A stretch of 49,227 bases of DNA from an uncultured Candidatus Bathyarchaeia archaeon (GTDB lineage: Archaea > Thermoproteota > Bathyarchaeia > Bathyarchaeales > Bathyarchaeaceae). This document shows positions 26,594-49,227 of this stretch, piece by piece. A program made the translations under genes and the position numbers. The notes beneath the pieces were generated by a model. It saw only the letters and a program-made list of their open reading frames with translations, was not told where the DNA came from and made no database searches. Each line of letters opens with the position of its first letter. The stretch's first letter is position 1. The stretch covers positions 1-49,227 of the forward strand of contig CAYFXU010000002.1 in the NCBI GenBank assembly GCA_964347145.1, given 5' to 3'.

Positions 26594-26824
26594 ACCCGAT
26601 GCGTAGACTTATTGAACACAACGTGGACATCTTAAGTTTTTCGCCGAATTTTTAGCAGTATCTAATTTATAAAGTTGTTTTACATCTTATGCAACTCTTC
26701 ATTACCAACTTTTGACAGCTGCGAAGAAAACAACAAATAAATTGAAAGAAACGCTTTTTAGGAGCAAGATTTCTTTAAGGTGCTAAATACGAAATTATAA
26801 GGTTGGTTAATACAGGCGATTAAC

Positions 26825-34860: not shown

Positions 34861-35322
34861 ATGAACAAGAACAAAATATCCTACTCGACCAATGAGGTGA
34901 AAGGTTTGGTTAAAGTAGATGACTATGAAGTGCCTGAAGGATTATACTACCACAAGGAATACCTGTGGGTACGCGTGGAAAAAGGAAAAGCAAAGATTGG
35001 CATGAGCGACTTCGCCCAAAAACAGCTTCGAGAAATCGTTTACGTCGAGCTTCCTAGCGTAGGCGACACTATCACCCAAAATGATCCCTTCGGAACGGTG
35101 GAATCCGTGAAAGCAGTCTCAGACCTAGTTGCTCCCATAAGCGGCACGATAGAAGACGTAAATCAAGAATTAGAGTCTAAACCAGAACTACTCAACGAAG
35201 ACCCGTACGACAAGGGATGGCTCCTAATGGTGAGCCCAACAAATCTTGACGTGGAATTAAAAGAAATTATGGACTTCAACGCGGCGGTGGAGTGGCACAA
35301 AGAACTCATAAAAGGAAGCTAA
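34861..35322 (+). CDS. gcvH: Glycine-cleavage H-protein family lipoyl carrier
   Basis: 153 aa. Carries the lipoyl-lysine motif TVESVKAVSDLVAPISGTI, plus YHKEYLWV and EDPYDKGWL. It has a ~20-aa N-terminal extension. It reads AQKQLREIVYVELP where the canonical sequence is AQ..LGD.VFV.LP. Confidence 0.88.
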   Translation: MNKNKISYSTNEVKGLVKVDDYEVPEGLYYHKEYLWVRVEKGKAKIGMSDFAQKQLREIVYVELPSVGDTITQNDPFGTVESVKAVSDLVAPISGTIEDVNQELESKPELLNEDPYDKGWLLMVSPTNLDVELKEIMDFNAAVEWHKELIKGS

Positions 35323-35465: not shown

Positions 35466-35654
35466 ATGGGAAAGGTCGAAGACCAAATCATTTCAGTGCT
35501 GGAAAACTCAAAAAAGCCTCTTGGTCTCGTTGAAATCGCCGATCAAATCGGGAAACCAACGAAAACAGTTTTCAAATCCTTGCGAAAGCTTTTTCAAAAA
35601 GGAAAAGTCGACTTCGACGCCAAGAGTCGTCAATATATGCTTGCCAAAGAATAG
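35466..35654 (+). CDS. Small winged-helix (wHTH) DNA-binding-like protein
   Basis: 62 aa. VLENSKKPLGLVEIADQIGKPTKTVFKSLRKLFQKGKV has a helix-turn-helix plus wing pattern like MarR/ArsR-type recognition modules. Confidence 0.45.
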   Translation: MGKVEDQIISVLENSKKPLGLVEIADQIGKPTKTVFKSLRKLFQKGKVDFDAKSRQYMLAKE

Positions 35655-35674: not shown

Positions 35675-36514
35675 TTAGTATTCTTTTGGCATCATCTCAA
35701 ATTCTTTGTAAGAGAAGACCGGACCGTCTTTGCACACGAACTTGTTTCCTATGTTGCATCTTCCGCACTTTCCGATGCCACACTTCATCCTCATCTCGAG
35801 GGATAGGAAGACATCCTCGGGAGAGAATCCGAGCTCGTTAATGACCGGCATTGTGAACTTTATCATTATAGGCGGGCCGCATACAATGGCGATAGCGTTG
35901 TCTGAGCTTGGGGCAACCTCCTTGAGAACGGTGGGGACAAAGCCAACCAATCCGGTCCATCCAGGGACAGCGCGGTCTATAGTCACATTGAGGTTGATGT
36001 CATCTCTGTTCCCCCAAGCCTCAAGGTCGTATTTGTAGATGAGTTCGCCTGGGTTGCGGGCTCCGTATATGACTGTTAAATCTTTGAACCTATCTCTGTT
36101 GGCTTCATGAAGAATGAATTTGGTCAGAGACCTCAGTGTTGTGAAGGCGAAGCCTCCTCCGACAATCACAACATTGCGACCTTCCATTTCCTCTAGTGGA
36201 AATCCGTTGCCGTATGGTCCTCTGACTCCGATAACCGTTCCTTCTTCGCTGTTGTGTAAAGCGGTGGTGACGACTCCGACTTTTTTCACTGTGAATTGAA
36301 TGCAGTCTTCGTCCATAGGAGATGAGGCTATTCCTATGGGGCACTCCCCAGTTCCGAATACAGAGATTTCTGCGAATTGACCGCATCTGTATCTGAAGCC
36401 CTTGATTGCCTCCGGGTCTTTGAAAACGAGCTCAAAGGTCTTTATGTCGTTCGCCTCGTTTTCTGTTGTGACCTTTCTGACGACCACAAGACTTGGGATG
36501 TAAGGATTGCTCAT
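35675..36514 (-). CDS. FAD/NAD(P)-binding [2Fe-2S] oxidoreductase subunit (FlxA / sulfhydrogenase gamma HydG / AsrB / PyrK family)
   Basis: 279 aa with FAD-binding RYRCGQFAEISV, an NAD(P) Rossmann VVIVGGGFAFTTLRS and the C-terminal cluster motif CGIGKCGRCNIGNKFVCKDGPVF. Confidence 0.8.
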   Translation of the reverse strand: MSNPYIPSLVVVRKVTTENEANDIKTFELVFKDPEAIKGFRYRCGQFAEISVFGTGECPIGIASSPMDEDCIQFTVKKVGVVTTALHNSEEGTVIGVRGPYGNGFPLEEMEGRNVVIVGGGFAFTTLRSLTKFILHEANRDRFKDLTVIYGARNPGELIYKYDLEAWGNRDDINLNVTIDRAVPGWTGLVGFVPTVLKEVAPSSDNAIAIVCGPPIMIKFTMPVINELGFSPEDVFLSLEMRMKCGIGKCGRCNIGNKFVCKDGPVFSYKEFEMMPKEY

Positions 36515-36517
36515 TCT

Positions 36518-37552
36518 CTATTTCTCCTCTCTGGTTGAAATTGCTCTGACTACTTCTCTAATGTCAAGGTTCACAGGACACTCCTTGACACATCTTCCAC
36601 AACCCACGCAGAAGCTGTCGCCATGGTTCTTGACGAAATAATTGAACTTGTGCATTATCCTCTGTCTCATCCTCTCTTTTCCTGAAGGACGAGGATTATG
36701 CCCAGACCCTTGCAACGTGAAGCAAGAAAATTGACAGGAGTCCCAGATCCTGACCCTTTTTTCTTCTTCAGTTTCTTCCAGAATGTCAAAACAGCAGCAT
36801 GTGGGACAGAGGAAGGTGCAGACCCCGCAGCCTAGGCACTTCTGACATGTCTTGTCCCAAAAAGGATCGTCAAACATTCTGTCGAGTTTTTCGCTCACAC
36901 CTTTAAAAGAAAACCTAGACTCCACAGCGCTTTCAGCGCGTTCGGATAGCTTGTTCGCCCGCTCCAAGTCCACTTTTTTCGCATCTTTCAGCCACGGAAA
37001 CTCTTTGACGAGTTCCTCGCCTCTATCAGAGACTGTTTCTATTAGATACTTATCGTTTATGTCTTGGAAAAGCAGGTCCAAGCCTTCTTTCCCGAAAGGA
37101 CTTCCTCCAAGGGATGTGCAGAAGCATGTACTCAGAGGATGATTGCACGCCAATCCGACTATTGTTGTGTTCTTCCTCTTCTCTAAATAATACACATCTT
37201 TGTGTTCCCCTGAAGAGAGGAAACTGTCCAGCAAAACGAAGCTTCTGGCATCGCAGGGACGGACACCTAATAGCACCCTCTTTCCATTTCCAGTGGAAGA
37301 CTCTACAATTTCTACGTCTTTCTTGTCAATTTTAAACGTGAATAGAGTCTCGGTTTGCGGAAAGAAAACCTCTTTGGGAGGCTTCTTTGTATTGCAGAAG
37401 TTGAGGTAGGCCTGGTTTTCGGGGGAGAGCCTTTCAAATGACACGATACTTTTTTCCTTGACTGGCACGAAAACCTCGTATTCTTCAGCCAGTTCTCCAA
37501 TGAGGACGGGCAATTTGCTTTTTTCAATTACCTTCCACTTCATTGGAAACAC
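36518..37552 (-). CDS. Iron-sulfur subunit (FlxB / sulfhydrogenase beta HydB / AsrA family)
   Basis: 344 aa with CQKCLGCGVCTFLCPTCCCFD and CVGCGRCVKECPVN. Starts are GTG 37552 or ATG 37543. Confidence 0.7.
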   Translation of the reverse strand: MFPMKWKVIEKSKLPVLIGELAEEYEVFVPVKEKSIVSFERLSPENQAYLNFCNTKKPPKEVFFPQTETLFTFKIDKKDVEIVESSTGNGKRVLLGVRPCDARSFVLLDSFLSSGEHKDVYYLEKRKNTTIVGLACNHPLSTCFCTSLGGSPFGKEGLDLLFQDINDKYLIETVSDRGEELVKEFPWLKDAKKVDLERANKLSERAESAVESRFSFKGVSEKLDRMFDDPFWDKTCQKCLGCGVCTFLCPTCCCFDILEETEEEKRVRIWDSCQFSCFTLQGSGHNPRPSGKERMRQRIMHKFNYFVKNHGDSFCVGCGRCVKECPVNLDIREVVRAISTREEK

Positions 37553-37558
37553 CCCGTT

Positions 37559-38509
37559 TCACTTGATGAACTCCTGAGGATCCTCCATTTTGAATTCTCC
37601 CAATGGAGGAACCGCTTCAAGGCTTACTCCCGCTTCGTAGCCATACCGCTCTTTCATGATTTTTTCAGTTTTCTTCACGAGCTCCCTCAGGTTTATTCCC
37701 ATAGGACAAGCTCGACTGCAGGCTCCGCAATCCACGCACCTCCCGGCCACATGAAAGGCGCGTACGATATGGTAGATCATGGTGTCTGAAAGGTCGTTAG
37801 TCTTGCCGAACCACACCGGCATAGTTTGGTCGACACAGCACATTTTGCAGTAGCATAGGGGACAAACGTTCCTACATGCATAGCACCTGATGCATTTGCT
37901 CAGTTCCTCCCTAAAATGTTCCCACCTCTCTTTCGCTGACTTGGACTCAAAATTAATAACTTCAGCGAACTCGTTAGTGTCCGGGATTTCAGGCACCTTT
38001 TCTCCTACAAATACGTCGCAGATAGGTGGATTCCTGTGCTTGCAGGTTAGACACGAATCGCAGAGGAAATCCTTTTTCGGCAATGTCAGCTCAAAACCCT
38101 CTCCCTTAACCTTGACCTGTTCATCTTCGACGACTGCTTCAAGGACATCTTTACCCTCGAGTTCTGCCTCTATTTTTTTTCTATCAATTATGCCCAGACA
38201 AGGAACACCTATTATGACTACATTTTCCCGCTGAAACTGCTTCTCTATGGCACAAACAGCTATCAACCGTGCGTCGCAACCTTTTGCGACAATTCCTACC
38301 TTTACATTCTTACCTATTACGTATTTTGAAAGATTGGCGTCACAGATTGCGTTCCAAACGAGCTTATGAACTTCCTCTGTGTTGTCCACAAAGCAGGGAG
38401 TAGTGCGGAGAGGTAAGCTTCCTTGCTCATATCCTATTATCAAGTCGACCTTCTTCTCGCTGAGAAGTTTTTTCGCGATCTCTCTCATCGAATTTTCAAT
38501 GTTTTCCAT
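37559..38509 (-). CDS. 2x[4Fe-4S] ferredoxin-domain subunit (FlxC-like) with an uncharacterised N-terminal domain
   Basis: 316 aa with CIRCYACRNVCPLCYC and CVDCGACSRACPMG. Its ATG overlaps the mvhD stop by 14 nt. Confidence 0.6.
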   Translation of the reverse strand: MENIENSMREIAKKLLSEKKVDLIIGYEQGSLPLRTTPCFVDNTEEVHKLVWNAICDANLSKYVIGKNVKVGIVAKGCDARLIAVCAIEKQFQRENVVIIGVPCLGIIDRKKIEAELEGKDVLEAVVEDEQVKVKGEGFELTLPKKDFLCDSCLTCKHRNPPICDVFVGEKVPEIPDTNEFAEVINFESKSAKERWEHFREELSKCIRCYACRNVCPLCYCKMCCVDQTMPVWFGKTNDLSDTMIYHIVRAFHVAGRCVDCGACSRACPMGINLRELVKKTEKIMKERYGYEAGVSLEAVPPLGEFKMEDPQEFIK

Positions 38510-38945
38510 GTGCCATCTCCCTCTTCACCAGTCTCTTGGCGGGTCCTAAAGTCTTCACCGTTTCTACCACTTCCGTCACAACTTTGGCAAACTTTTCACC
38601 TTCAGCAGCTGAAACCCATGAGAAGTTTACCCTTCCAGGATCAATCCCCACATACCCCAACAAGTCCTTCAAGACAGCAAACCTCCTTCTGGCCACAAGG
38701 TTCCCGCTGATGTAGTGGCAGTCTCCCGGATGGCAGCCAGAAACCAACACCCCATCCCAGCCGTGCTGCAGGGCCGTTATGATATAGTATGGATTGACTC
38801 GCCCGGAGCATGGGACTCGGATGATTCTTATGTTAGGAGGATATTGGATCCTGCTTATCCCGGCAAGGTCTGCTCCGGCGTAGCTGCACCAGTTGCACAG
38901 GAAAGCTAGTATTTTTGGCTCCCATTCTTCTTCGGCAGTTTTCAT
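38496..38945 (-). CDS. mvhD: MvhD/FlxD-type [2Fe-2S] electron-transfer subunit (methyl-viologen-reducing hydrogenase delta family)
   Basis: ILAFLCNWCSYAGADLAG...VPCSGRVNP...DGVLVSGCHPGDCHY. The ATG at 38945 lies 5 nt after the hdrA stop, with GAGGTGA spanning that stop. The track's 38978 start lies inside hdrA. Confidence 0.88.
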   Translation of the reverse strand: MKTAEEEWEPKILAFLCNWCSYAGADLAGISRIQYPPNIRIIRVPCSGRVNPYYIITALQHGWDGVLVSGCHPGDCHYISGNLVARRRFAVLKDLLGYVGIDPGRVNFSWVSAAEGEKFAKVVTEVVETVKTLGPAKRLVKREMAHGKH

Positions 38946-38950
38946 TTTAG

Positions 38951-41900
38951 TCACCTCAGCGCGGCTATGACCGAGCATATCTGGTGGTCAGTAAAGCCTT
39001 TGATATCTATGGCTGAGCACCTGCAAGTAGCTGCGCAGGCTCCGCATCCCTTGCATAGGGCGCTGTTCACCTTCGCTGTTCTTCCTATCTTAGTCTCCTC
39101 GATCTCCATAGCATTGTACGCGCATACCTGTATGCAAAGCTCACACGCCGTGCATCTGTTCGGGTTGACAGTGGCTACGATTCCCTCGGCCTCGATTGTG
39201 TCTTTAGCCAGCACAGTGCATGCCCTGGAGACGGCGGCCTTGGCCTGAGAGATACTCTCTTCCATGGATTTTGGGGAATGAGCCATTCCGCATACGAAGA
39301 TGCCGTCTGTGGCAAAGTCGACAGGTCGAAGCTTGGCGTGTGCCTCCAGAAAGAAACCATCTTCGTTGATCGGAACCTTCAGCATCTTGGCCAAAATCTC
39401 GTTTTCTTTGGGTGGAATCACGGCTGCGCTCAGAACGACGATGTCCGCGTCTATCAGGATGTCTTCTAGAATGGTTGGCTCAAAGACCGAGACCTGCAAG
39501 CGCTCCTTTCCTTCTGATTGGACCTTCTGAACCTTCGGCTTGTTTTCTTCGTCGTAGCGGATAAAAACTACTCCAGCTTCTCGAGCTTTTCTGTAGTGTT
39601 CTTCTTTTAGACCGTACGTTCTTATGTCCCGATAAAGAACATACACGTTGGCTTCTGGGTCCTTTTCCTTTACTTTTAAGGCATTCTTGACCGCTTCTCC
39701 ACAACACATTCTGCTACAGTAGGGGCGTTCATCACACCTGGACCCGACACATTGAATCATCACCACATTGCCAAACTTTTCTTCAGCGTTGGCTACATTG
39801 CGTTCCTCCAGTTCTAGTTGCGTTAGGACGCGGGGGTCTTCACCATAAAGGTACTCGTTTGGATGATATTCTTCACCGCCAGTAGCAACGATAATGACGC
39901 CATGTTCCAGTTCTTTTTTTGCTTCACTGCTCGAGTTTTGATTCACTGTAGTTTTAAAGTTCCCTACGTACCCGGAGACATTCTCGACCTTTGTGTCTAG
40001 AAAGACTTGGATCAGTTCGTTTGAGTTTACCTTTTCAATAATTGTTTTGATGTAGTCTCGAGTGTCCTCACTGTCCAATGTGTAGTGGATCTTGCGGAGG
40101 AATCCCCCAAGTTCTTTGTTCTTCTCCACCAAATAAACTTCGAAACCTTGTTCAGCTAGGGCTAGAGCCGCAGTCATGCCTGACAAACCACCCCCGATAA
40201 CGAGTCCACGGCGGGTGACGTTCAGAGAAAGCCGCTCCAAGGGGGTCAGCATTCGAGCCTTTGCCACCACCATTCTCACCAAATCCTTCGCCTTCTCGGT
40301 TGCGGCTTCGTGAACATGCATGTGAACCCAAGAGCACTGGTCTCGGATGTTCGCCATCTCAAAGAGATACCGGTTCAGGCCAGCCTCCTTTATGGTTTCC
40401 TGAAAGAGAGGTTCATGTGTTCGCGGTGAACATGAGGCAACCACAACCCTGTTGAGACCGTATTCTTGGATATCCTTCTTTATCCGCTCTTGAGTGTCTG
40501 AAGAGCATGTATAGAGGTTGTCGCAGGCGTGGACGACGTTTGGAAGAGTTTTGACATACTCCACCACACTTGGAACATCGACAACACCTCCAATGTTGAT
40601 GCCGCAATGACAAATGAAGACTCCTATCCTAGGCGGTTGTCCTCTAACATCAATCTCTTTTGGGAACTCTTTCTTCTTAACCAAGCTTCCTCGAACTGAA
40701 GATAGCAACTCACCGACACAAGAAGCAGCCGCGCTGGCTTGAGTCACAGTCTCGGGAATATCCTTGGGCGAGGAAAGCATGCCGCAAACGAAAACTCCAA
40801 GCCTTGAAGTTTCCATAGGGTTGAAGGTTTGGGTTTTGCAGAAACCGTATTCATTCAACTGAACACCGAGGTTTTTGGCTAACTTCTTAACATTCTCGGA
40901 AGGGGTGAAACCGATTGAAAGGACAACTAGTTGAAACTCTTCTTCAAGGAGTTTTCCATCTTCAGTCTCATACCTTATTCTCAGATTCTGGGTCTCAGGT
41001 ATCTCTTCTATTCCAGACACTCTACACCTGACGAATCTCACTCCGTACTCGTCTTTAGCCCTCTCGATGTATTTGTCGAAGTCCTTTCCGTACGCTCGTA
41101 GGTCTATGTAGAAAATAGTTGGTTCAATCTGGTTCATGTGTTCCTTGGCTATTACAGCTTCCTTTGTGGCGTACATACAACAGACTGAAGAGCAGTAGCC
41201 GTTCCCACAAGTGACGTCTCTTGAGCCGACGCATTGTACAAAAGCAATTTTCTTGGGGATGTCTCCGTCTGATGGTCTTTCCACTCGTCCCATGAAGGGA
41301 CCAGAAGCACTCAGTATGCGCTCGAACTCAATGCTTGTGACCACGTTGGCGTATCTTCCGTAACCATACTCGCTTTTCAATTTGGCGTCAAATTCTTCAG
41401 CGCCGGGGGCCAAGATGACTGCGCCAACATTCAGTTTACCCTCTTTCTCTTGGTCTGAGTAGTTTATGGCGTCCGCCAGACAGATGTTTTTACAGAGCCC
41501 GCAACCCATGCACTTCTCTCTGTCGATCATATAAACCAGTGGAACAGCTTGCGGGTAATCTATGTGGATTGCGGACCTCTCGCTCAAGCCTTTGTTGAAG
41601 GTATCTATAGCCTCTACTGGACAAAACTTGGCGCACAATCCACAACCTGTGCACCTTTCCATATCAACGTATCTTGGCCGTTGTTTAACTGAGACGTTTA
41701 GGTTGCCTGCCTCTCCAGAGATTCCCGTAACCTCAGAACAAGTCAACACTTCAATGTTCAGGTGTCTTCCACATTCCACGAGCTTTGGAGACAAAATGCA
41801 CATGGAGCAGTCGTTTGTTGGGAACGTCTTGTCTAGCCTCGCCATGACTCCGCCTATGGCAGAGGAATTGTCCACTACGTAGACTTTGAAGCCTGAATCT

Positions 41901-42001
41901 GCCAGGTCAAGCGCCGACTGTATTCCTCCGATTCCCCCGCCCACAACTAACACGGAACCTACTTTGTTTTCTTCAGAAAGTGGGTTTTTTGGGTTCACCA
42001 T
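38951..42001 (-). CDS. hdrA: Fused double HdrA-like flavoprotein: QmoA-like module with inserted ferredoxin domain plus canonical HdrA module
   Basis: 1016 aa with two FAD dinucleotide motifs (VLVVGGGIGGIQSALDLADSG and GLVIGGGLSGMTAALALAEQG). Other motifs are DKTFPTNDCSMC, two CSSVCC/CSRMCC motifs, an internal HdrA N-domain motif IGVFICHCGINIGG, and four CxxCxxCxxxCP-type ferredoxin motifs. Confidence 0.9.
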   Translation of the reverse strand: MVNPKNPLSEENKVGSVLVVGGGIGGIQSALDLADSGFKVYVVDNSSAIGGVMARLDKTFPTNDCSMCILSPKLVECGRHLNIEVLTCSEVTGISGEAGNLNVSVKQRPRYVDMERCTGCGLCAKFCPVEAIDTFNKGLSERSAIHIDYPQAVPLVYMIDREKCMGCGLCKNICLADAINYSDQEKEGKLNVGAVILAPGAEEFDAKLKSEYGYGRYANVVTSIEFERILSASGPFMGRVERPSDGDIPKKIAFVQCVGSRDVTCGNGYCSSVCCMYATKEAVIAKEHMNQIEPTIFYIDLRAYGKDFDKYIERAKDEYGVRFVRCRVSGIEEIPETQNLRIRYETEDGKLLEEEFQLVVLSIGFTPSENVKKLAKNLGVQLNEYGFCKTQTFNPMETSRLGVFVCGMLSSPKDIPETVTQASAAASCVGELLSSVRGSLVKKKEFPKEIDVRGQPPRIGVFICHCGINIGGVVDVPSVVEYVKTLPNVVHACDNLYTCSSDTQERIKKDIQEYGLNRVVVASCSPRTHEPLFQETIKEAGLNRYLFEMANIRDQCSWVHMHVHEAATEKAKDLVRMVVAKARMLTPLERLSLNVTRRGLVIGGGLSGMTAALALAEQGFEVYLVEKNKELGGFLRKIHYTLDSEDTRDYIKTIIEKVNSNELIQVFLDTKVENVSGYVGNFKTTVNQNSSSEAKKELEHGVIIVATGGEEYHPNEYLYGEDPRVLTQLELEERNVANAEEKFGNVVMIQCVGSRCDERPYCSRMCCGEAVKNALKVKEKDPEANVYVLYRDIRTYGLKEEHYRKAREAGVVFIRYDEENKPKVQKVQSEGKERLQVSVFEPTILEDILIDADIVVLSAAVIPPKENEILAKMLKVPINEDGFFLEAHAKLRPVDFATDGIFVCGMAHSPKSMEESISQAKAAVSRACTVLAKDTIEAEGIVATVNPNRCTACELCIQVCAYNAMEIEETKIGRTAKVNSALCKGCGACAATCRCSAIDIKGFTDHQICSVIAALR

Positions 42002-42002
42002 C

Positions 42003-42788
42003 TTAGCTCACCTCTTTTCTTCGATACTTTGGGCTATTTCCTTCTATTCCTGCAACAGAGACTAACCCAGCGCGCTCGAGAGAAGTCATGTTTCTTAGCA
42101 CTTCGCTCGGAGAGTTTCCCACTTTTTTAGCTATTTCCCTGACGGAGAGGGTGTCTTTTCCCAGGGAGAGTAGGATTCTTCTTTTTGCAAGCTCTTTTTC
42201 GATGGTTTGGAACATCAGTTGATCGAATTCTTCTTGAGGGACTTTCTCCCCAAAGACGTTTTTATCCTCCACAAGCTCCATTTCTCTGCCCATGAGCCAT
42301 CTGATTCTCTGTTGGGCGAGGGCTTCCTTGGCTGCTAATAAGCGTGCTTTCAAATGTTCGAGTTTCATGTCTGTTTCTTTGCCTAGTGGACCTAGTTTCT
42401 TCACTCTTTCTGTGAATTCTTTCACCAGAGTTGCGAAGCGTTCACCCTCAGCGGCGGACACCCATTCAACTATCACCCGATCAGGAGACAATCCCACGTT
42501 TTTGAGGACATTTTTGGTTGTTTTCATTCTTCTTTTCGTGTAGTAGTTTCCGGTAATGTAGTGGCAGGTTCCCAGGTGGCAGCCCAAGACCATGACGCCG
42601 TCTAGACCTTGGATGAAGGCTTCAAGAATGATGGTTGGGTCAACCCTTGCTGAGCACATTACTCGGATAATACTTACATTGGGGGGATATTGCATACGGC
42701 TGACTCCCGCTAAATCCGCTGCGGCGTACGAGCACCAGTTGCAGAGGAACCCCAGGATTTCTGGTTCAAAATTCCTCTGAGAGGTCAA
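42003..42788 (-). CDS. MvhD-domain protein fused to a C-terminal winged-helix domain
   Basis: 261 aa. Residues 1-135 are MvhD (ILGFLCNWCSYAAADLAG, VMCSARVDP, DGVMVLGCHLGTCHY). Residues about 195-261 read ILLSLGKDTLSVREIAKKVGNSPSEVLRNMTSLERAGLVSVAGIEGNSPKYRRK, an ArsR/MarR-like wHTH pattern. The TTG start overlaps the upstream stop (TTGA), with GGAGGT 9 nt upstream. Confidence 0.8.
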   Translation of the reverse strand: MTSQRNFEPEILGFLCNWCSYAAADLAGVSRMQYPPNVSIIRVMCSARVDPTIILEAFIQGLDGVMVLGCHLGTCHYITGNYYTKRRMKTTKNVLKNVGLSPDRVIVEWVSAAEGERFATLVKEFTERVKKLGPLGKETDMKLEHLKARLLAAKEALAQQRIRWLMGREMELVEDKNVFGEKVPQEEFDQLMFQTIEKELAKRRILLSLGKDTLSVREIAKKVGNSPSEVLRNMTSLERAGLVSVAGIEGNSPKYRRKEVS

Positions 42789-44458
42789 GGTGTAACCTCC
42801 GCTAGGGCAACTACTTGTGCAACAAGCTGCTCATTGGTAAAGTGTCTCATAGTGATTGCCATCTGCGGACATCCAGCTCCGCATGCCCCACAACCCTTGC
42901 AGGAAGCGGCTATCACCTTGGCTTTCCTTCCCTTCTCGGTTCTTTCAACATGTATTGCCTTGAAAGGGCAAGTCATCTCGCACAAGCCGCAACCGGAGCA
43001 TTCTTCCTCATCAATCATCGGGATTAAGGGCTCGGTTTTCACGCGTCCAACTGACATAGGTATAGACGCTCGAGAGGCTGCGCCGTACGCTTGGAAAATG
43101 CTCTCACTGATGTTGGCCGGCCAATGGGCGCAACCGCACACATAAATGCCGTCCGTGGCGAAGTCGACGGGTCGAAGTTTAACGTGGGCCTCCAGGAAGA
43201 AGCCGTTCTCGTCAACTGGTACTTTCAGTTTCTGTGCGAGGTCTTTGGAGTCGTTGTAGGCGACCATTGGCGTTGAAAGCACGACGAGATCGTAGGGCAA
43301 TACGAGTTCTTCGCCCAGGAGCTCATCGTAGGCTCTGATCGACCCATTCTCGAGAACTGGTTGCCTTTGAGGCGAGTATTTTATGAATATTACGCCCGTT
43401 TCTCTCGCTTTTCCGTAGTAATCTTCATACTTTGTTCCTTGGGTTACAATGTCTCTGTATAACACGAAAACCTGGGCATTTGGGTTTGCTTCTTTAATTA
43501 ACATCGAGTTTTTGAGGGCGGCTAGGCAACAAACCTTAGAGCAGTAGGCCCTTTGTTCGTTCCTCGATCCTACACATTGGATCATCACAACATTGTCGGC
43601 GTTGATCCTTCCCTTCTTCAGCATTTGTTCCAGTTCCAGTTGGGTGACAACGGTTTTTCCATTGTAGCCATACATGCCCACGGGCTTGAGTGACTCAGCA
43701 CCTGTTGCTATCACGATCACTCCAGCCTTGAATAGCCTCTCCTTTTCTCCATTCCCTATCGTGACGTCATAATTGCCGACGAAGCCTTCAACTTCTTTAA
43801 CTTCGGAAGATGTCAAAACCTCTATCTCAGGGTTCTTCCGAACTTCCTTCGTCCTCTCCTGAACCAGCCTTGAAGCTTCTTCATTTGTTGGATAAAGCTT
43901 GTAGAGGTTATTTAGAGTTCCACCCAATTGGTTCTCTTTCTCTATCAGCTTCACTTCGAAGCCGCGGTTAGCTAGACTGAGGGCACAGGTCATTCCCGCG
44001 ATCCCTCCTCCAATTACCAAGGCGCAGGGATTAACCGCAATCTCAGTCTCTTCCAAAGGTTCCAGCAACGCTGCCTTTGCGACTCCCATCCTTATTAGGG
44101 CTTTTGCCTTTTCAGTTGCCTTCTCCCTCTCTTGCATGTGGACCCAAGAGCATTGGTCTCTTATGTTTACGAATTGAAAGAGGTAGGGGTTTAGTTCTGC
44201 CTCCTTGCAGGTTGACCTAAATAGAGGTTCGTGAGTTCTTGGGGTGCAAGACGCTACGACCACGCGGTTCAACTGTTTTTCCGCTATGGCGTTTTTTATT
44301 TCTGTTAATCCAGCCTCGGAGCAGGTATACTGATTGTCTTGAGAGAAGACAACGTGAGGCAAACTCAAGGCGTATCTAGTGAGTTCCGGAACGTCGAGAA
44401 ATCCTGCTATGTTCGTTCCGCAGTGACATACAAAAACGCCCACTCTAGCTTCATCCAA
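42785..44458 (-). CDS. hdrA: HdrA-like flavoprotein, module B (HdrA N-domain + FAD domain + C-terminal ferredoxin domain)
   Basis: 557 aa with VGVFVCHCGTNIAG, RDQCSWVH, ALVIGGGIAGMTCALSLANRG, CSKVCC, CSGCGLCEMTCP and CKGCGACGAGCP. It is colinear with residues about 455-1016 of the 1016-aa paralog. TTG start, with AGGTGA upstream. Confidence 0.9.
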   Translation of the reverse strand: MDEARVGVFVCHCGTNIAGFLDVPELTRYALSLPHVVFSQDNQYTCSEAGLTEIKNAIAEKQLNRVVVASCTPRTHEPLFRSTCKEAELNPYLFQFVNIRDQCSWVHMQEREKATEKAKALIRMGVAKAALLEPLEETEIAVNPCALVIGGGIAGMTCALSLANRGFEVKLIEKENQLGGTLNNLYKLYPTNEEASRLVQERTKEVRKNPEIEVLTSSEVKEVEGFVGNYDVTIGNGEKERLFKAGVIVIATGAESLKPVGMYGYNGKTVVTQLELEQMLKKGRINADNVVMIQCVGSRNEQRAYCSKVCCLAALKNSMLIKEANPNAQVFVLYRDIVTQGTKYEDYYGKARETGVIFIKYSPQRQPVLENGSIRAYDELLGEELVLPYDLVVLSTPMVAYNDSKDLAQKLKVPVDENGFFLEAHVKLRPVDFATDGIYVCGCAHWPANISESIFQAYGAASRASIPMSVGRVKTEPLIPMIDEEECSGCGLCEMTCPFKAIHVERTEKGRKAKVIAASCKGCGACGAGCPQMAITMRHFTNEQLVAQVVALAEVTP

Positions 44459-44465
44459 GTTCCTG

Positions 44466-45758
44466 TCACCTCATGACAATCTCTGCGGCCCGCTCGGCTG
44501 CCCCACTCGCTTGGGCTACAGACTCGGGTATGTCCGTTGGTTCTCTGCAGCACCCGCACACGAATATTCCTGGTTTAGTTGAGTCCAACGGGTTTAAATG
44601 ATCAGTTTTGAAGAAGTTGTATTCATCAAGCTCGGTTCCCAGAGCCTTTGCTAACTCCTCCACACCTCTTCTCGGCATCAGACTGGTTGCCAAAACCGCC
44701 AAGTCCACAGGCATTTTCTTTGTTTCTGAGGTTTGAATCTCTTCATACCAAACTATAGGATTCTCATTTCGATCTTCGGTTATCTTGGCAACCCGACCTC
44801 TAACGTAAGATATATTGTATTCCTGCTCTCCTCTCGCTACGTATTTTTGGAAACCCTTCCCCGCCGCCCGAAGGTCCATGTAGAATACGTAGGACGTCAC
44901 GTTTGGGTCGTGTTCATAGGCGAGCATGGCCTCTTTAGTTGCGTGCATGCAACAGACGGATGAACAGTAACGGTTGTTTCTAAGGTCTCTAGACCCAACG
45001 CACTGTATGAAAGCAATGTTTTCCGCGGGCTTTTTGTCTGAGGGTCTCGTGAGGTGTCCTCCAGTGGGCCCTGAAGCACATATCAGTCTCTCGTACTCTA
45101 GCGACGTGATCACGTTTCGGTACCTTTTGTAGCCATATTGAAGAATCCCGGAAGGATCGAAGGGGTCAAAACCTGTGGCGACGATGATGGCGCCAACGTG
45201 CAATGTTACATCCGTGTCTTCCTGCTCAAAGTCGATAGCCTTTCTGGTGCAAAATCTCTCACATATTCTGCACACACCCCTCGTTAGGAAAAGGCAGTTT
45301 TCCCTGTCAATGGTCATGGCTGCTGGAACTCCTTGAAGGTAGTATGGGTATATGGCTTCCCTCCTTCTCAGTCCCATGTCAAATTCGTCAGGCACCTTTA
45401 CGGGGCACTTTGCGGCGCATTCTCCACAGTTGACACATTCGCTTTCCTTTACGAATCTGGCATACTTGCGTAACTTCACCGAGAAATCTCCAATCCGGCC
45501 CATAACGTTCTTGACCTCCGATAGGGTGTGGAGGGTTATGTTGGAGTGTCTGAAGCAATCGGCTAGTTTGGGAGATAGTATACATATGGAGCAGTCGTTT
45601 GTTGGGAAGGTCTTGTCAAGTTGAGCCATCCTTCCACCTATGGCTGGCTTCCTCTCAACCAAGTGCACCTTGATCCCCATATCTCCGAGGTCCAGAGCTG
45701 CTTGGATGCCGGCTATTCCACCACCAATAACGAGGACTGGCCTAGGCTTTTCCTCCAA
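44466..45758 (-). CDS. hdrA: HdrA/QmoA-like flavoprotein, module A (FAD domain with inserted ferredoxin-like domain)
   Basis: 430 aa with VLVIGGGIAGIQAALDLGDMG, DKTFPTNDCSIC, CVNCGECAAKCP and CSSVCCMHATKEA. It is colinear with residues 1-450 of the 1016-aa paralog. TTG start, with GGAGGAAAGG upstream. Confidence 0.88.
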   Translation of the reverse strand: MEEKPRPVLVIGGGIAGIQAALDLGDMGIKVHLVERKPAIGGRMAQLDKTFPTNDCSICILSPKLADCFRHSNITLHTLSEVKNVMGRIGDFSVKLRKYARFVKESECVNCGECAAKCPVKVPDEFDMGLRRREAIYPYYLQGVPAAMTIDRENCLFLTRGVCRICERFCTRKAIDFEQEDTDVTLHVGAIIVATGFDPFDPSGILQYGYKRYRNVITSLEYERLICASGPTGGHLTRPSDKKPAENIAFIQCVGSRDLRNNRYCSSVCCMHATKEAMLAYEHDPNVTSYVFYMDLRAAGKGFQKYVARGEQEYNISYVRGRVAKITEDRNENPIVWYEEIQTSETKKMPVDLAVLATSLMPRRGVEELAKALGTELDEYNFFKTDHLNPLDSTKPGIFVCGCCREPTDIPESVAQASGAAERAAEIVMR

Positions 45759-46887
45759 GGTCCTTTCCTCCAGCCAATTCAGAGAGTCTCTCCTCGGCTC
45801 TCATTCTCTTCCTTCTGGCGAAGGAGACAAGTTTAGCCATCATTTTCGTCTTTTCTATCCTGCTCTCCTCCGCATTTTCGAAGGTTCTTTCTTGGATGTA
45901 GCCCTCACGGAGGGCTTTGTCGTAAACCGACGCACCTAATTTTGACCTTATCAGGGTTGTGGTGAATCCATCAGGTGAACCAAGTCCTCCAACAGAAATG
46001 TCTGCATATTCGTTGTTGAAGTCTTTACAAGTGAAGCATGCTGGACGGGCAACTTCGTGTACCTCTTCCAATGGGACATGGATTGTCACGCCCTTTGTGA
46101 GGGAGATTACGAAATCGTCCTTGATGTTTAGCTTGACAATCTTCTCCAAGTTTAAGTCAAGTTTTTTTTCCAACATTTCTCTCGCTACGTCATCAAAGGA
46201 GAAGTTTTCTATGCAGAATAATCCTATTGTATACCTTATGAGGTGGGCCGGGATAATGCCAAGGCACTGCATCTTTCGAATCGCGTTGATTTGGCATGGA
46301 GTTCCAACCACCGCTATGTCATGCAGGTACCCTTTCTCCAAGCTTTTTACCGTGGACAGGATCGGAGTATAGGTAGTGTATTTTCCCCCCAGTTCTTCTA
46401 GGTGAAGGGATCCTGAGAACGTGGAGCCCGCCGCTTCGATGAGTTCCTTAGGTGTTCTAGCAACTATCGCCTTTCTTGCGAAGCGTCCGACCTTCTTTGA
46501 GACGATTGCACCATTTATCAGATTGCGCTCCAATAAATATAAGAGAATGGAGGTTACCACCCCTCCGTCCGTGCAAATCTCCTTCACGTTCTCATTCGTC
46601 GTTTGAGCGGAAGTTATCCTCTGATAGTCTCCTATTGGGGGTTTCCACCCAAACTTCTCTTGGAGTTCTACGTTTAGGGTGTCCGTTTGGGGGCATATGA
46701 GGTAGCATATTCCGCATTTTAGACAGTTATCCTCGTTAATATATCGTGGGACCTCATTCTTGCCCATTTCTAGGGCGTTCAGTTCTCCTGCTGAGCAAAA
46801 GGAGACGCATCCGCCACATTTACCGCATATTCCCTTTTCAATTACTTCTTCGGTTAGGTCTTTGAATGTCTTGATCTCTTCCTCCAT
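45742..46887 (-). CDS. FrhB/FdhB/FpoF-family F420-interacting iron-sulfur flavoprotein with an N-terminal 2x[4Fe-4S] ferredoxin domain
   Basis: 381 aa with CGKCGGCVSFCS and CLKCGICYLICPQ, followed by the FrhB-type core (IAVVGTPCQINAIRKMQ, GLFCIENF, CFTCKDFNNEYADISVGG). Confidence 0.8.
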   Translation of the reverse strand: MEEEIKTFKDLTEEVIEKGICGKCGGCVSFCSAGELNALEMGKNEVPRYINEDNCLKCGICYLICPQTDTLNVELQEKFGWKPPIGDYQRITSAQTTNENVKEICTDGGVVTSILLYLLERNLINGAIVSKKVGRFARKAIVARTPKELIEAAGSTFSGSLHLEELGGKYTTYTPILSTVKSLEKGYLHDIAVVGTPCQINAIRKMQCLGIIPAHLIRYTIGLFCIENFSFDDVAREMLEKKLDLNLEKIVKLNIKDDFVISLTKGVTIHVPLEEVHEVARPACFTCKDFNNEYADISVGGLGSPDGFTTTLIRSKLGASVYDKALREGYIQERTFENAEESRIEKTKMMAKLVSFARRKRMRAEERLSELAGGKDLGGKA

Positions 46888-47031: not shown

Positions 47032-48381
47032 TTGCCTAGGAAAATAGTAATTGTTGGCGCCAACGCTGCTGGTGTCCATGCAGCCAACGCGGCCCGCAAA
47101 ACCGATCCCAAGGCTGAAATAACCCTTATAGATAAAGAGCCATATCCAGCGTACTCTCGTTGTGGTATACCGTATGTATTGGGGGGCGAGATCCCTACTT
47201 TTGATGACCTTATGGCCTTCCCTCCATCTCACTATAGAATGATGAAGTTTGATCTACGCCTTGAAACCAAGGCTAGATCCATAAACCCAAGTGACAAAAT
47301 TGTTCTGGTTGAAGATAATGAAGGAAACTTTGAAGCGCTAAAATATGATTCATTGATTCTCGCAACTGGGGCTGATCCATTTGTCATACCGATAGAAGGT
47401 CACAACCTTCCAGGGGTGTTTGCGATGAGGACTGTGGATGACGGAAAGGCAATACAAGAGGCAATCAAGACGGCTGAGAACGCTGCTGTTGTAGGCGCAG
47501 GGTTCATTGGCCTAGAAACGGCACATGCCTTCGTAGCAAGTAAAATCAAAACCACAATCATTGAATTGGTGCCATATATTCTTCCTGCATTATTTGATGA
47601 AGATATGGCCGATTACGCACAGAAGAAGATGGAAGAGCATGGCGTCAACGTGGTAGTGGGCAGACGGGTAGACGCAATTCTAGGAAAAGATAAGGTTGAA
47701 GGCGTGAGCGTAGGCGGCGAAGAAATCAAAGCAGATGTTGTTGTTATGGCAGCAGGAATTAGACCTAGAACAGACTTGATAAGAGGACTTGGAGTCGAAC
47801 TGGGCGTCACCAGAGCTATTAGAGTCAACCCAAGAATGGAGACAAGCGTCTCTGACATATTCGCAGCTGGAGACTGTGTGGAGTCTCAAAGCTCGATTAC
47901 AGGGCTACCGTGTCTTTATCAACTTGGAACCAATGCAGTTAGGCAGGGGACGGCCGCTGGAGTCAATGCCGCAGGAGGGTACGCTTCCAATCCTCGCGTG
48001 ATATGCAGTGCAGTTTCAAAGATTTTCGATTTTGAACTTGGTGCAGTTGGTCTCTCAGAATATCAAGCTGCCAAGGTGGGTTTCCGAACAGTCAGTGCAA
48101 GCATCACGGGAAGAACTCGGGCACCATACTTCCCCGGCGGAAAAGAAGTCAGAGTAAAGATTATTGCTGAACCGATTTTGGGAAGAGTTATGGGAGCCCA
48201 ATTGGTCGGTGGAGAAGATGTGGCGCAGAGAATTAACATGCTCTCTGTGGCGATACAAAAGGAAATGACGGCATTGGAGCTCTCAGCGGCAGATACCAGT
48301 TACGCTCCTCCAGTAGCTGAGACCGTTGAACCAGTAGCAACAGCCGCTGAGATCGTCGCAAAGAAGATACGGCGGCGTTAG
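47032..48381 (+). CDS. Pyridine nucleotide-disulfide oxidoreductase of the single-cysteine NADH oxidase / CoA-disulfide reductase / NSR type
   Basis: 449 aa with a TTG start. Motifs are KIVIVGANAAG, a single active-site-position Cys in YSRCGIPY, a second Rossmann AAVVGAGFIGLE, and AAGDC. Confidence 0.85.
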   Translation: MPRKIVIVGANAAGVHAANAARKTDPKAEITLIDKEPYPAYSRCGIPYVLGGEIPTFDDLMAFPPSHYRMMKFDLRLETKARSINPSDKIVLVEDNEGNFEALKYDSLILATGADPFVIPIEGHNLPGVFAMRTVDDGKAIQEAIKTAENAAVVGAGFIGLETAHAFVASKIKTTIIELVPYILPALFDEDMADYAQKKMEEHGVNVVVGRRVDAILGKDKVEGVSVGGEEIKADVVVMAAGIRPRTDLIRGLGVELGVTRAIRVNPRMETSVSDIFAAGDCVESQSSITGLPCLYQLGTNAVRQGTAAGVNAAGGYASNPRVICSAVSKIFDFELGAVGLSEYQAAKVGFRTVSASITGRTRAPYFPGGKEVRVKIIAEPILGRVMGAQLVGGEDVAQRINMLSVAIQKEMTALELSAADTSYAPPVAETVEPVATAAEIVAKKIRRR

Positions 48382-48434
48382 GAAACCTCATTAGGCGCTG
48401 ACATCCAGGCCTATGGCCAATTGCACCTAAGAAG

Positions 48435-48944
48435 ATGTCAGGAACTGCGCGCGAGCGCTCGAAGGTTGAATATATGAAAGTTGACACCTACGACATTCCT
48501 GAAAATTATTATTACCTCAAAGAACACGAGTGGGTCTTAATAGAAAACACTGACACCGCGAGAGTTGGCATCACGGATTACGCTCAGAAAGCGCTGAGGG
48601 AGATTACATACTTTTACGTCGGGAAGAGGGGTGCCAAAGTCAAACGGATGGAGACAATTTGCAGAATAGAATCCGTAAAATGTGTCGCCGAGATATTAAG
48701 TCCGCTTTCGGGGGTGGTTCTCAGATTTAATAACGCATTAGCTGACACTCCGGGCATTATAAATCAAGACCCTTATGGCAAAGGATGGATAACAATTATC
48801 CGCCCCGCAAACCTTGACAAGGAACTAGAAAAACTGTTAGAAACAGAACTTTACGCGGAGCATATTAGGCAGCTTACCAGAATCGACGAAACTCTATTGA
48901 TTCATAGATGGAAAAAGGGGATAGGAGAAAAAACGGGCGAATAA
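48435..48944 (+). CDS. Divergent GcvH-family lipoyl-carrier paralog (LbpA-like candidate)
   Basis: 169 aa, or 156 aa from the ATG at 48474. It retains HEWV, the lipoyl-lysine context RIESVKCVAEILSPLSGVV and QDPYGKGW. It lacks the canonical LGD.VFV.LP.VG, reading ALREITYFYVGKRG instead. It carries a ~40-aa C-terminal extension. Confidence 0.8.
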   Translation: MSGTARERSKVEYMKVDTYDIPENYYYLKEHEWVLIENTDTARVGITDYAQKALREITYFYVGKRGAKVKRMETICRIESVKCVAEILSPLSGVVLRFNNALADTPGIINQDPYGKGWITIIRPANLDKELEKLLETELYAEHIRQLTRIDETLLIHRWKKGIGEKTGE

Positions 48945-48952
48945 CAAATGTC

Positions 48953-49227
48953 CTAAATTTGGACGCCAACTCTCTTCAACAAATCAGACGTCCTCACACG
49001 GTTCATGTCTAGCCCCAGCCCTTTTGGGTCTATTCCGAGAGCCAACCCAAGGATTTGGGTGTAAAAGAGAACGGGCAGGTTATATGCAACGTTGAATCTT
49101 CTCTCTATCACCCTCTGATTTCTGTCGTACATGGAGCCACACAAGGGGCACATCAGAACCATCGCGTCGGCACCCCCAGCTTTAACGTGGTCAAGCTTCT
49201 TCTGAGCCAATGCTAAGGCGATTTTAT
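48953..49227 (-). CDS. hdrB: Heterodisulfide reductase subunit B-like protein, C-terminal CCG-domain part; gene runs off the right edge
   Basis: The reading frame stays open to the window end (..KIALALAQKKLDHVKAGGADAMVLMCPLCGSMYDRNQ...NLPVLFYTQILGLALGIDPKGLGLDMNRV). The AGAD...CP.C...Q...PV.....Q.LGLALG pattern is typical of the HdrB C-terminus. Other CCG-domain proteins (GlcF, SdhE/TfrB) are not excluded. Confidence 0.7.
   Translation of the reverse strand, partial: KIALALAQKKLDHVKAGGADAMVLMCPLCGSMYDRNQRVIERRFNVAYNLPVLFYTQILGLALGIDPKGLGLDMNRVRTSDLLKRVGVQI

Follow-up and report, generated by a model that had tools for sequence, protein, structure and literature searches.

Among the energy-metabolism genes of uncultured anaerobic archaea and bacteria, those for HdrABC, Flx-Hdr and Mvh-Hdr belong to the most widespread and most highly expressed. 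Which disulfide do the encoded heterodisulfide reductases (Hdr) handle? Beyond methanogens and sulfate reducers their substrate is still called "unknown" or "unidentified" (PMC7886697; 10.1101/2023.11.21.568159; PMC9723716), and for the Bathyarchaeia the physiological disulfide of Hdr has been stated as unknown (PMC7886697). The question is raised anew by a contig of 49,227 nucleotides (nt) from an uncultured Candidatus Bathyarchaeia archaeon (GenBank assembly GCA_964347145.1, contig CAYFXU010000002.1), analysed here in full and called the window, at one end of which a gene for a GcvH-family protein, GcvH#2, lies between the gene of a flavoprotein of the coenzyme A disulfide reductase (CoADR)/Nox family and the truncated gene of HdrB. 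An earlier note on this DNA had suggested that protein-bound lipoamide is the redox couple handled by HdrB, with the CoADR-like enzyme standing in for the dihydrolipoamide dehydrogenase (E3). A conserved gene adjacency, the presence of lplA and lipS genes and a set of operons from Anaerolineae speak for this suggestion, while the low potential of lipoamide is awkward for it and the pairings are ones that we infer. Gene context gives a little less than an even chance to the reading in which lipoyl-GcvH connects HdrBC/Flx-Hdr with NAD(P)H, by way of the CoADR-like enzyme, as a carrier of a protein-bound dithiol/disulfide.

A GcvH gene between a CoADR-like flavoprotein and hdrB

The flavoprotein encoded at 47032-48381 carries a Pyr_redox_2 domain (4.2e-62) and the dimerisation domain Pyr_redox_dim (Pfam), and it is, as described before, a disulfide reductase of the single-Cys type (YSRCGIPY) whose gene precedes gcvH. 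Cys44 in PAYSRCGIPY is the sole N-terminal redox cysteine, and the CxxxxC redox disulfide of E3 is absent from this protein. In the PDB its closest relatives comprise NADH oxidases, CoADR and CoA-persulfide reductase, with A. fulgidus NoxA-3 (1.9e-85) and Pyrococcus CoADR (4fx9, 6e-76) as the best matches. The protein scores under the curated cut-offs for CoADR (TIGR03385, 345.9 versus 578.8; NF007123, 315 versus 458) and far under the one for E3 (TIGR01350, 135.6 versus 408.8 bits).

The start codon of GcvH#2 was placed at ATG 48474, because more than 100 homologues have 156 amino acids (aa) and begin with MKV; a 169-aa open reading frame (ORF) from 48435 was discarded as overlong given these homologues. 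The spacer between the CoADR-like stop codon and gcvH, previously given as 54-93 nt, can thereby be refined to 92 nt. On the other side, the gap of 8 nt holds, since the stop codon of GcvH#2 ends at 48944 and the convergent CCG-domain ORF begins at 48953. The lipoyl-lysine motif ESVKCVAE is present in GcvH#2, and its Lys69 is invariant across 70 aligned sequences. The AlphaFold model built on this 70-sequence alignment (pLDDT 89) shows an intact H-protein fold, with a Foldseek match to the H-protein of T. thermophilus (1onl_A; TM-score 0.95, root-mean-square deviation 1.0 Å). Two statements on this protein had to be revised. The segment LGD.VFV.LP.VG, described as lost, has indeed had its canonical letters replaced by LREITYFYVGKRG, but the alignment with the T. 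thermophilus H-protein is free of gaps and there is no deletion. The extra tail measures about 20-27 aa in the model instead of about 40 aa, as the canonical C-terminal helix (124-136) is followed by a low-confidence extra helix (140-148) and a disordered basic end.

The only cysteines of GcvH#2, Cys63 and Cys70, stand on either side of Lys69. They are invariant in 30 of 30 sequences of the family to which GcvH#2 belongs, here called T2, and absent from the other GcvH types compared. The two residues may tune the lipoyl chemistry, for instance through mixed disulfides that would constitute a true protein "heterodisulfide". In a neighbour-joining (NJ) tree T2 forms a clade of its own (100% bootstrap) on a long branch, which is not nested among the H-proteins linked to gcvT/P. 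The family is narrow, with only 6 cluster representatives at E<=1e-30 among 1.84 billion, and for neither candidate start was an exact record of the GcvH#2 protein found; the sequence past the contig end was read from relatives with 72-87% GcvH#2 identity. A profile search of GTDB species-representative contigs, dominated by the generic NxDPYGxGW pattern, contained no T2-type locus among the matches listed; the same search supplied the gcvT-linked and CoADR-linked GcvH outgroups. The nearest outgroup of T2, P0123, has the LLIHRWKK tail in common with it but not the cysteines; its gene is divergent from a CoADR-like gene on a contig of 1.6 kb, which was the only contig that it matched in a metagenome scan. 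Assignment of these GcvH proteins to the NCBIfam family GcvH_rel_desulf was rejected at 56 bits or less versus a cut-off of 150. The representative search also returned P0122, a protein of 1391 aa with three separate GcvH-like stretches and hence a multi-H-domain protein.

The hdrB fragment of the window retains the last CxxC of the protein. Its full-length orthologue in the related contig L001 (10483-11361) matches the methanogen HdrB 5odc_B in the PDB (5e-77) and carries two CCG motifs (C..CC..CxxC; residues 10-80 and 153-233), although it scores under the equivalog cut-off (TIGR03288, 300.7 versus 345.15). In the relatives HdrB has 291-292 aa and is about 45% identical to the solved methanogen protein (5odc). 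Directly upstream of hdrB the search for hdrC was successful in L001, L002, L004, L006 and L007; the contig of the window stops before that position. The edge gene is therefore not a lone GlcF/SdhE-type protein, given the methanogen-type match, both CCG motifs and the hdrC of the relatives.

Is this neighbourhood an accident of one genome? The order Flx/Hdr operon (-), CoADR (+), GcvH#2 (+), hdrB (-), hdrC (-) was found in seven of seven related contigs with 72-87% GcvH identity, and it is this recurrence that places the arrangement beyond chance. The CoADR-like orthologues in the seven syntenic loci are 86-91% identical. The outer flanks of the block differ among the relatives and consist of an MFS transporter, mvhGA-hdrACB, lplA or GAPDH-PGK. 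In L004 (12175-18417), mvhG-mvhA-hdrA(MvhD fusion)-hdrC-hdrB comes next after the GcvH#2/hdrBC block, so that a [NiFe] hydrogenase-Hdr set adjoins the lipoyl module. The second hdrCB pair of this contig is only 41% identical to the GcvH-adjacent pair, which marks the latter as a distinct paralogue.

Divergent from the CoADR-like gene is the nine-gene HdrA/MvhD/Flx/FrhB operon reported before (35675-46887, minus strand). Pfam detected no CCG-domain subunit inside this operon, and hdrCB would therefore supply the missing subunit.

Three GcvH families and the question of glycine cleavage

The window encodes a further GcvH protein, GcvH#1, which belongs to a separate family (T1; 99% bootstrap). 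The idea that GcvH#2 arose by recent duplication of GcvH#1 was dropped, as the grouping of T1 with T2 received 4% bootstrap. Members of T1 stand at the end of a Flx/Hdr operon in the window, in L089 (a contig of 2.2 Mb), in L105 and in L106, with three different upstream contexts. In L090, L107 and L108, T1 is the first gene of a gcvH-CoADR operon whose genes overlap or lie 3 nt apart, and in L018 and L009 it is adjacent to a CoADR-like gene. The CoADR genes of these gcvH(T1)-CoADR pairs encode proteins with 55-59% identity to the CoADR-like protein of the window. The T1 family thus bridges the CoADR-like enzyme and Flx/Hdr. Judged by gene order, a partnership of GcvH with the CoADR-like enzyme is likely, and GcvH#1 is very probably no H-protein of glycine cleavage either, and instead a dedicated lipoyl carrier of Flx/Hdr.

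A third GcvH family (141 aa, motif FMSMESGKWVGR) was found by chance in the metagenome scan with P0123, through the pattern YYTKEHVW. Its members carry the motif MESGKWVGR, and their source names are those of Anaerolineae/Chloroflexota. In all nine contigs with upstream sequence, an Hdr/Flx operon ends with this GcvH gene, which is co-directional with it. The order in L103 and L104 is HdrD-like (Fer4 and two CCG domains)-HdrA-like (1140 aa)-MvhD-FrhB-like-Fer4_22-uncharacterised-FlxA-like-GcvH, with a gap of 18 nt before the terminal GcvH in L103. L096 has HdrA-MvhD-FrhB-like-Fer4_22-FlxA-GcvH-Lpl; L095 and L097 have HdrD-like-tandem HdrA-MvhD-GcvH, an order repeated in L100, where a fused LplA+LplB ligase follows. 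L094, L098 and L102 show the same operon ends. A lipoate ligase comes after GcvH in five of the nine contigs (L096, L098, L100 and L102 among them) and also in L101, a contig without upstream sequence. Because Anaerolineae also own a canonical GcvH beside a true two-Cys Lpd (CLNWGCIPTK; L051 and L054), the GcvH of the Hdr operons must be regarded as an additional, specialised paralogue.

Three side observations belong to these operons. A protein of 361-365 aa without Pfam domains is conserved between the Fer4_22 and FlxA-like genes (L103, 7978-9075; L104, 7984-9069). The tandem HdrA-HdrA architecture of the bathyarchaeal operon is also found in the bacterial hdrD-hdrA-mvhD-gcvH-lpl operons (L095, L097, L100), at 34-35% identity. 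An archaeal GcvH from Ca. Terraquivivens (L030, 190-681; METGKWVGP) groups with the Anaerolineae family at 62% bootstrap, and a weak HdrB-like match lies about 7 kb from it.

The obvious alternative is that GcvH#2 is an ordinary H-protein from a glycine cleavage system (GCS) or from the reductive glycine pathway, the CoADR-like enzyme an archaeal substitute for the L-protein, gcvT and gcvP located elsewhere, and the adjacency to hdrCB a lineage-specific accident. GcvH#2 indeed scores above the NCBIfam cut-offs for GcvH (NF002270, 134.8 versus 117; TIGR00527, 121.8 versus 115.85), has the intact H-protein fold and retains Glu12, His13 and Glu14; the NJ tree places it, with weak support, near bathyarchaeal GcvH linked to gcvT, and gcvH-CoADR pairs occur without Hdr nearby. 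Some orders of Bathyarchaeia do possess a GCS, although it is reported for two orders only (PMC10321748). The cut-offs had to be given up as proof of GCS function, however, since all GcvH types pass, and the Anaerolineae Hdr-operon family passes NF002270 too. The absence of gcvT, gcvP and 2-oxoacid dehydrogenase E2 from the 49 kb was borne out by tblastn with E. coli GcvT and GcvP and by Pfam searches of all large ORFs, a result that applies to the window and not to the whole genome. Moreover, neither gcvT nor gcvP was found in about 25 T1, T2 or Hdr-operon loci, L001-L007 included, whereas three bathyarchaeal contigs (L008, L010 and L017) carry gcvT directly upstream of gcvH, and their GcvH is of another type (LHEIVYVELP).

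A comparison by residue was made for the H-protein cavity. In the E. coli H-protein, the aminomethyl-lipoyl arm is held by Glu12, Glu14, Ser67, residue 68 and Tyr70 (preprint 10.1101/2021.03.28.437365); cavity positions are given here in E. coli numbering, whereas Lys69, Cys63 and Cys70 follow the numbering of GcvH#2. Among 26 GcvH proteins linked to gcvT/P, His13 is present in 26, Glu14 in 25 and an aromatic residue at position 70 in all 26. At this position T2 has Leu or Met, T1 Val or Ile, and the Anaerolineae family Lys or Glu, so that all three Hdr- or CoADR-linked families are without the aromatic cavity residue of the gcvT/P-linked H-proteins. T2 retains His13 and Glu14 in the cavity but has Cys at 65, Ala for Ser67 and Glu for Asp68 in addition to Leu/Met for Tyr70; in T1, His13, Glu14 and Tyr70 are all replaced, and in the Anaerolineae family Glu14 and residues 63, 65, 67, 68 (to Arg) and 70. 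With the GCS the GcvH#2 locus has in common the H-protein fold with the lipoyl-Lys at the tip of a hairpin and a flavoprotein disulfide oxidoreductase encoded alongside (as Lpd is in L051 and L054), but it differs by the lack of linked gcvT/gcvP, the lost aromatic residue, the Cys next to the lipoyl-Lys, the extra tail and the one-Cys flavoenzyme. Glycine cleavage would, in addition, leave the recurring Flx/Hdr linkage in two domains of life unexplained. We therefore consider a role outside the GCS quite likely for these GcvH paralogues, and the GCS explanation improbable.

Lipoylation of GcvH would call for lipoate assembly, and an archaeal set of such genes, LplA, LipS2 and LipS1, which goes beyond the earlier note's list, lies within the same 25-kb region. 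The small subunit LplB was not found in any intergenic ORF of the window, and LplA is the catalytic subunit only. An lplA orthologue (53% identity) is co-directional with, and directly upstream of, hdrC-hdrB in L006. The LipS1/S2 enzymes have been characterised in Thermococcus (PMC9585515), and a set of the LplA/LipS1/LipS2 type is also the general archaeal lipoate pathway (PMC10332631). As an observation apart, contigs of Acidaminococcaceae/-ales (L035, 1604-8550; L083, 817-7846) carry gcvT-gcvH-gcvPA-gcvPB-lipS1-lipS2-lplA, which ties a GCS to the LipS1/S2-type lipoate pathway. The proximity of these genes, with GcvH#1 about 1 kb from lipS1, could also indicate that the GcvH paralogues are acceptors and donors in the assembly of lipoate for some other lipoyl protein, a relay role that is established for GcvH in Bacillus (B. 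subtilis; PMC6067878). We hold this to be very improbable, as no E2, no other lipoyl-domain protein and no LipL-type amidotransferase were seen in the window, and as a relay explains neither the CoADR-like partner nor the place behind flxA within the operons of Anaerolineae.

Lipoyl-GcvH as a candidate partner of HdrBC

How might a lipoylated GcvH serve an Hdr complex? In the proposed mechanism, LplA and LipS1/LipS2 would build the lipoyl group on Lys69. The CoADR-like enzyme would use the NAD(P)+/NAD(P)H couple to interconvert the lipoyl and dihydrolipoyl forms of GcvH and so replace a two-Cys E3, a substitution suggested by the conservation of the gcvH-CoADR operons. HdrB, with two non-cubane [4Fe-4S] CCG sites, and HdrC would act on the same dithiolane/dithiol, and HdrBC would link the dithiol to the HdrA flavins and to the MvhD, FrhB and FlxA-like modules of the nine-gene operon, putatively within a single complex. 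The lipoyl arm would then be a recyclable, protein-tethered "heterodisulfide" that couples the Hdr machine to the pyridine-nucleotide pool. Both coenzyme B (CoB) and lipoyl-lysine are acyl amides, the former C7 with a terminal thiol, the latter C8 with a dithiol and so with a second thiol built in, and for this reason the lipoyl arm resembles the native substrate of HdrB. Direct turnover of lipoyl-GcvH by HdrB, which we rate as somewhat less likely than not, is the more doubtful part of the mechanism put forward tentatively here from the gene order.

Several points weigh against a carrier of this kind. Its entire support is gene context together with what can be deduced from sequence. GcvH#2 exceeds the GcvH cut-offs and retains Glu12, His13 and Glu14, as described above. 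GcvH#2 and hdrB are convergent and not co-transcribed, and the seven relatives belong to one clade, so that their agreement does not amount to seven independent events. No Hdr gene occurs within 10 kb of T1 gcvH-CoADR loci such as L090, L107 and L018, from which it follows that the pair can function without adjacent Hdr. A second entry of NAD(P)H through the CoADR-like enzyme looks redundant, since the FlxA-like protein already has a NAD(P)H site. Finally, lipoamide has a standard potential some 150-180 mV lower than that of CoM-S-S-CoB, the heterodisulfide that coenzyme M (CoM) forms with CoB, which makes it a poor high-potential acceptor for bifurcation from NADH or F420H2. Values of about -290 to -325 mV are quoted for lipoamide (PMC8760232). 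With so weak an acceptor in comparison to CoM-S-S-CoB, bifurcation to ferredoxin driven by NADH or F420H2 would be unfavourable, and confurcation (from ferredoxin and the dihydrolipoyl group to NAD(P) or F420) or a loop linked to H2 is more plausible than NADH-driven bifurcation.

The gcvH-CoADR pairs that stand alone in several genomes suit a different explanation, namely thiol-redox defence or sulfur reduction, in which O2, CoA disulfide, persulfide or polysulfide would be the substrate reduced by the CoADR/Nox-like enzyme, and lipoyl-GcvH would form a dithiol relay to a peroxidase or to sulfane sulfur, with no part in Hdr catalysis. The model for it is the mycobacterial AhpD/AhpC defence, in which lipoyl proteins have such a task. 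It also draws on the closest solved relatives of the flavoprotein (NADH oxidases, CoADR and CoA-persulfide reductase), on the likeness of the Fer4_22 and FlxA-like proteins to sulfhydrogenase beta and gamma subunits, and on the known antioxidant roles of lipoylated proteins (PMC10332631). Peroxiredoxin and AhpD were not found among the window ORFs (Pfam), nor were rhodanese, DsrE and TusA. Since this explanation also fails to account for GcvH and lipoate ligase inside the hdr-flx operons of Anaerolineae and for lplA in front of hdrCB in L006, we assign it a low probability.

The closest known parallel is the sHdr-LbpA system of Hyphomicrobium denitrificans, Aquifex and Sulfolobales, in which the GcvH-like LbpA is accompanied by CCG proteins, a dedicated Lpl and LipS1/LipS2 (Cao et al. 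2018, PMC6067878). Both cases feature a GcvH-like single-lipoyl-domain protein genetically tied to HdrB/HdrC-type CCG proteins, an LplA-type ligase and LipS1/LipS2 nearby, a carrier that is probably not for glycine cleavage, and a proposed NAD-linked dihydrolipoyl dehydrogenase step. The present context nevertheless differs from described sHdr loci, as had been stated and as the tests of synteny, sulfur transferases and Cys pattern confirmed. Neither shdrC1B1AHC2B2 nor C1B1AHB3-etfAB is present; there is a single hdrC-hdrB pair, with no second B and no etfAB. Whereas sHdr systems are described as "always accompanied" by sulfur transferases (DsrE, TusA or rhodanese; 10.1101/2023.12.18.572138), none of the three was found in the window, in its large ORFs or in 24 small intergenic ORFs, in agreement with what had been reported. 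LbpA has two conserved cysteines, one near each terminus (PMC6067878), a pair that GcvH#2 lacks, its Cys63 and Cys70 standing to either side of the Lys. As partners one finds here HdrA2-like tandem flavoproteins, MvhD, FrhB and anaerobe modules of the Flx type, and the reductase gene encodes a single-Cys CoADR-like enzyme instead of an E3. When plasmids were searched by tblastn, no match was recognisable as LbpA, the annotated matches being labelled gcvH, and no LbpA was found in the PDB.

These comparisons also bear on sulfur handling of the sHdr kind in an anaerobe, with the lipoyl arm, perhaps together with Cys63/Cys70, carrying sulfane sulfur for HdrBC as proposed for LbpA. An Hdr-like CCG protein combined with a GcvH-like protein, a dedicated Lpl and LipS1/S2 counts as the hallmark of shdr-lbpA loci (PMC6067878; PMC10332631), and T2 has extra invariant cysteines. 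Set against the missing sulfur-transfer proteins, the missing shdr synteny, the different cysteine pattern and partners of the bifurcation type (HdrA2-like, MvhD, FrhB, Flx), this makes sulfane-sulfur transport quite improbable.

The FlxABCD-HdrABC complex of Desulfovibrio and the MvhADG-HdrABC complex of methanogens are built from the same domains (FlxA-like, Fe-S subunits, MvhD, HdrA, HdrC and a two-CCG HdrB). Their known substrates are DsrC or CoM-S-S-CoB, whereas the candidate here is a lipoylated H-protein; hdrCB is moreover split from the hdrA/flx operon, and FrhB and a tandem HdrA are added. For the Culexarchaeia, an Ehe/HdrA2B2C2 cluster that contains gcvH has been described, and an interaction of the lipoyl disulfide with HdrB was speculated upon by the authors (PMC9723716). 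That case resembles ours as a non-methanogenic TACK archaeon without CoM/CoB that has gcvH inside an Hdr-containing cluster. Their cluster, however, belongs to a membrane [NiFe]-hydrogenase with SdhA and CdhA, has no CoADR-like partner, and was presented with no mention of lipoate-assembly genes and no comparative test, while the present comparison shows the linkage in both Bathyarchaeia and Anaerolineae. In acetogens, a GcvH/LpdA redox pair was considered by Oppinger and Muller and judged unlikely (PMC8760232). The suggestion of an undescribed variant thus applies to the arrangement in Bathyarchaeia and Anaerolineae, which full-text literature searches did not retrieve, but not to the idea of a GcvH-HdrB interaction, which had already been voiced (PMC9723716).

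Other genes of the window and the meaning of the module

The features discussed are collected in Table 1. The 62-aa ORF between GcvH#1 and the operon end recurs in the corresponding place in L089, L105 and L106; it could act as a local regulator. The fusion of MvhD to a C-terminal winged-HTH domain (259-261 aa) is kept in L001, L004, L007 and L089 and might sense redox state as a regulator or serve as a moonlighting subunit. Between lplA and lipS2 (24539-29557), the window encodes an H+-translocating pyrophosphatase (684 aa) and a P-type cation ATPase (910 aa). The names that homologues bear assign the contig to the Bathyarchaeia, genes for archaeal EF1A, S7 and S12 are present, and scans of the window for RNA families (Rfam) and tRNAs found none.

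Table 1. Coordinates of the lipoate-assembly, GcvH, Flx/Hdr and CoADR-like genes in the window.
Feature	Position	Strand	Evidence and remarks
LplA-type lipoate-protein ligase, catalytic subunit	23703..24512	+	269 aa; LplA-B_cat 1.9e-47; NCBIfam LplA_large 197 bits, below 480 cut-off
LipS2, radical-SAM lipoyl synthase subunit	30738..31796	-	NF053743 352.9 bits, cut-off 270
LipS1, radical-SAM lipoyl synthase subunit	32833..33861	+	NF053742 254.6 bits, cut-off 230; Pfam Radical_SAM and BATS
GcvH#1 (family T1), convergent with the 3' end of the Flx/Hdr operon	34861..35322	+	near-canonical motif ESVKAVSD; GCV_H 4e-39
Winged-HTH ORF between GcvH#1 and operon end	35466..35654	+	62 aa; weak TrmB/HTH_IclR matches
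FlxA-like FAD/NAD(P)-binding Fe-S protein (sulfhydrogenase gamma/AsrB-like)	35675..36514	-	NAD_binding_1 and DHODB_Fe-S_bind; NF006220 225 bits
Fer4_22 Fe-S protein (sulfhydrogenase beta/AsrA-like, FlxB-type)	36518..37552	-	Fer4_22 1.4e-30; ShyB 2e-55, below cut-off
FrhB_FdhB_C-like protein with 2x[4Fe-4S] (FlxC-type)	37559..38509	-	Pfam
MvhD (FlpD) electron-transfer protein	38496..38978	-	FlpD 2.7e-55
Tandem HdrA-like flavo-Fe-S protein	38951..42001	-	1016 aa; NF040770 HdrA2 1025.6 bits in 3 stretches (cut-off 1100)
MvhD domain fused to winged-HTH	42003..42788	-	FlpD 1.7e-55; HTH_20/HTH_24
HdrA-like protein	42785..44458	-	557 aa; HdrA2 573.5 bits
HdrA-like protein	44466..45758	-	430 aa; HdrA2 526.4 bits
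FrhB, F420-interacting flavo-Fe-S subunit, first operon gene	45742..46887	-	FrhB_FdhB_N and FrhB_FdhB_C; NF006807 201.7 bits
CoADR/Nox-family single-Cys FAD/NAD(P)H disulfide oxidoreductase	47032..48381	+	449 aa, TTG start
GcvH#2 (family T2), lipoyl-Lys69, extra C-terminal tail	48474..48944	+	156 aa; GCV_H 2.4e-35 (Pfam)
hdrB 3' end, cut by contig end	48953..49227	-	last ~91 codons; TIGR03288 1.5e-20, model positions 206-290

Could the proposed carrier extend beyond this archaeon? That protein-bound lipoate on GcvH paralogues is the physiological substrate of HdrBC/HdrD in the Flx/Hdr and Mvh/Hdr complexes of non-methanogenic anaerobes, namely Bathyarchaeia, Anaerolineae and probably others, is a generalisation that we regard as rather unlikely at present. 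Under it, a closed redox loop of lipoyl-GcvH with the CoADR-like enzyme or an E3 would carry NAD(P)H electrons into or out of flavin-based bifurcation or confurcation. What the loci offer is a candidate for the Hdr substrate in the form of a co-conserved, genetically encoded set, consisting of a lipoylated H-protein paralogue, a ligase with a synthase, and a NAD(P)H-linked reductase, which makes the question testable with recombinant proteins. If the proposal is true, anaerobic electron bifurcation would join 2-oxoacid metabolism, glycine metabolism and sHdr sulfur oxidation as a process in which lipoate has a role, and thousands of genes whose automatic annotation reads "glycine cleavage system protein H" would be wrongly assigned. 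Metabolic models of the Bathyarchaeia, which belong to the most abundant organisms of the subsurface, would then need to be changed.

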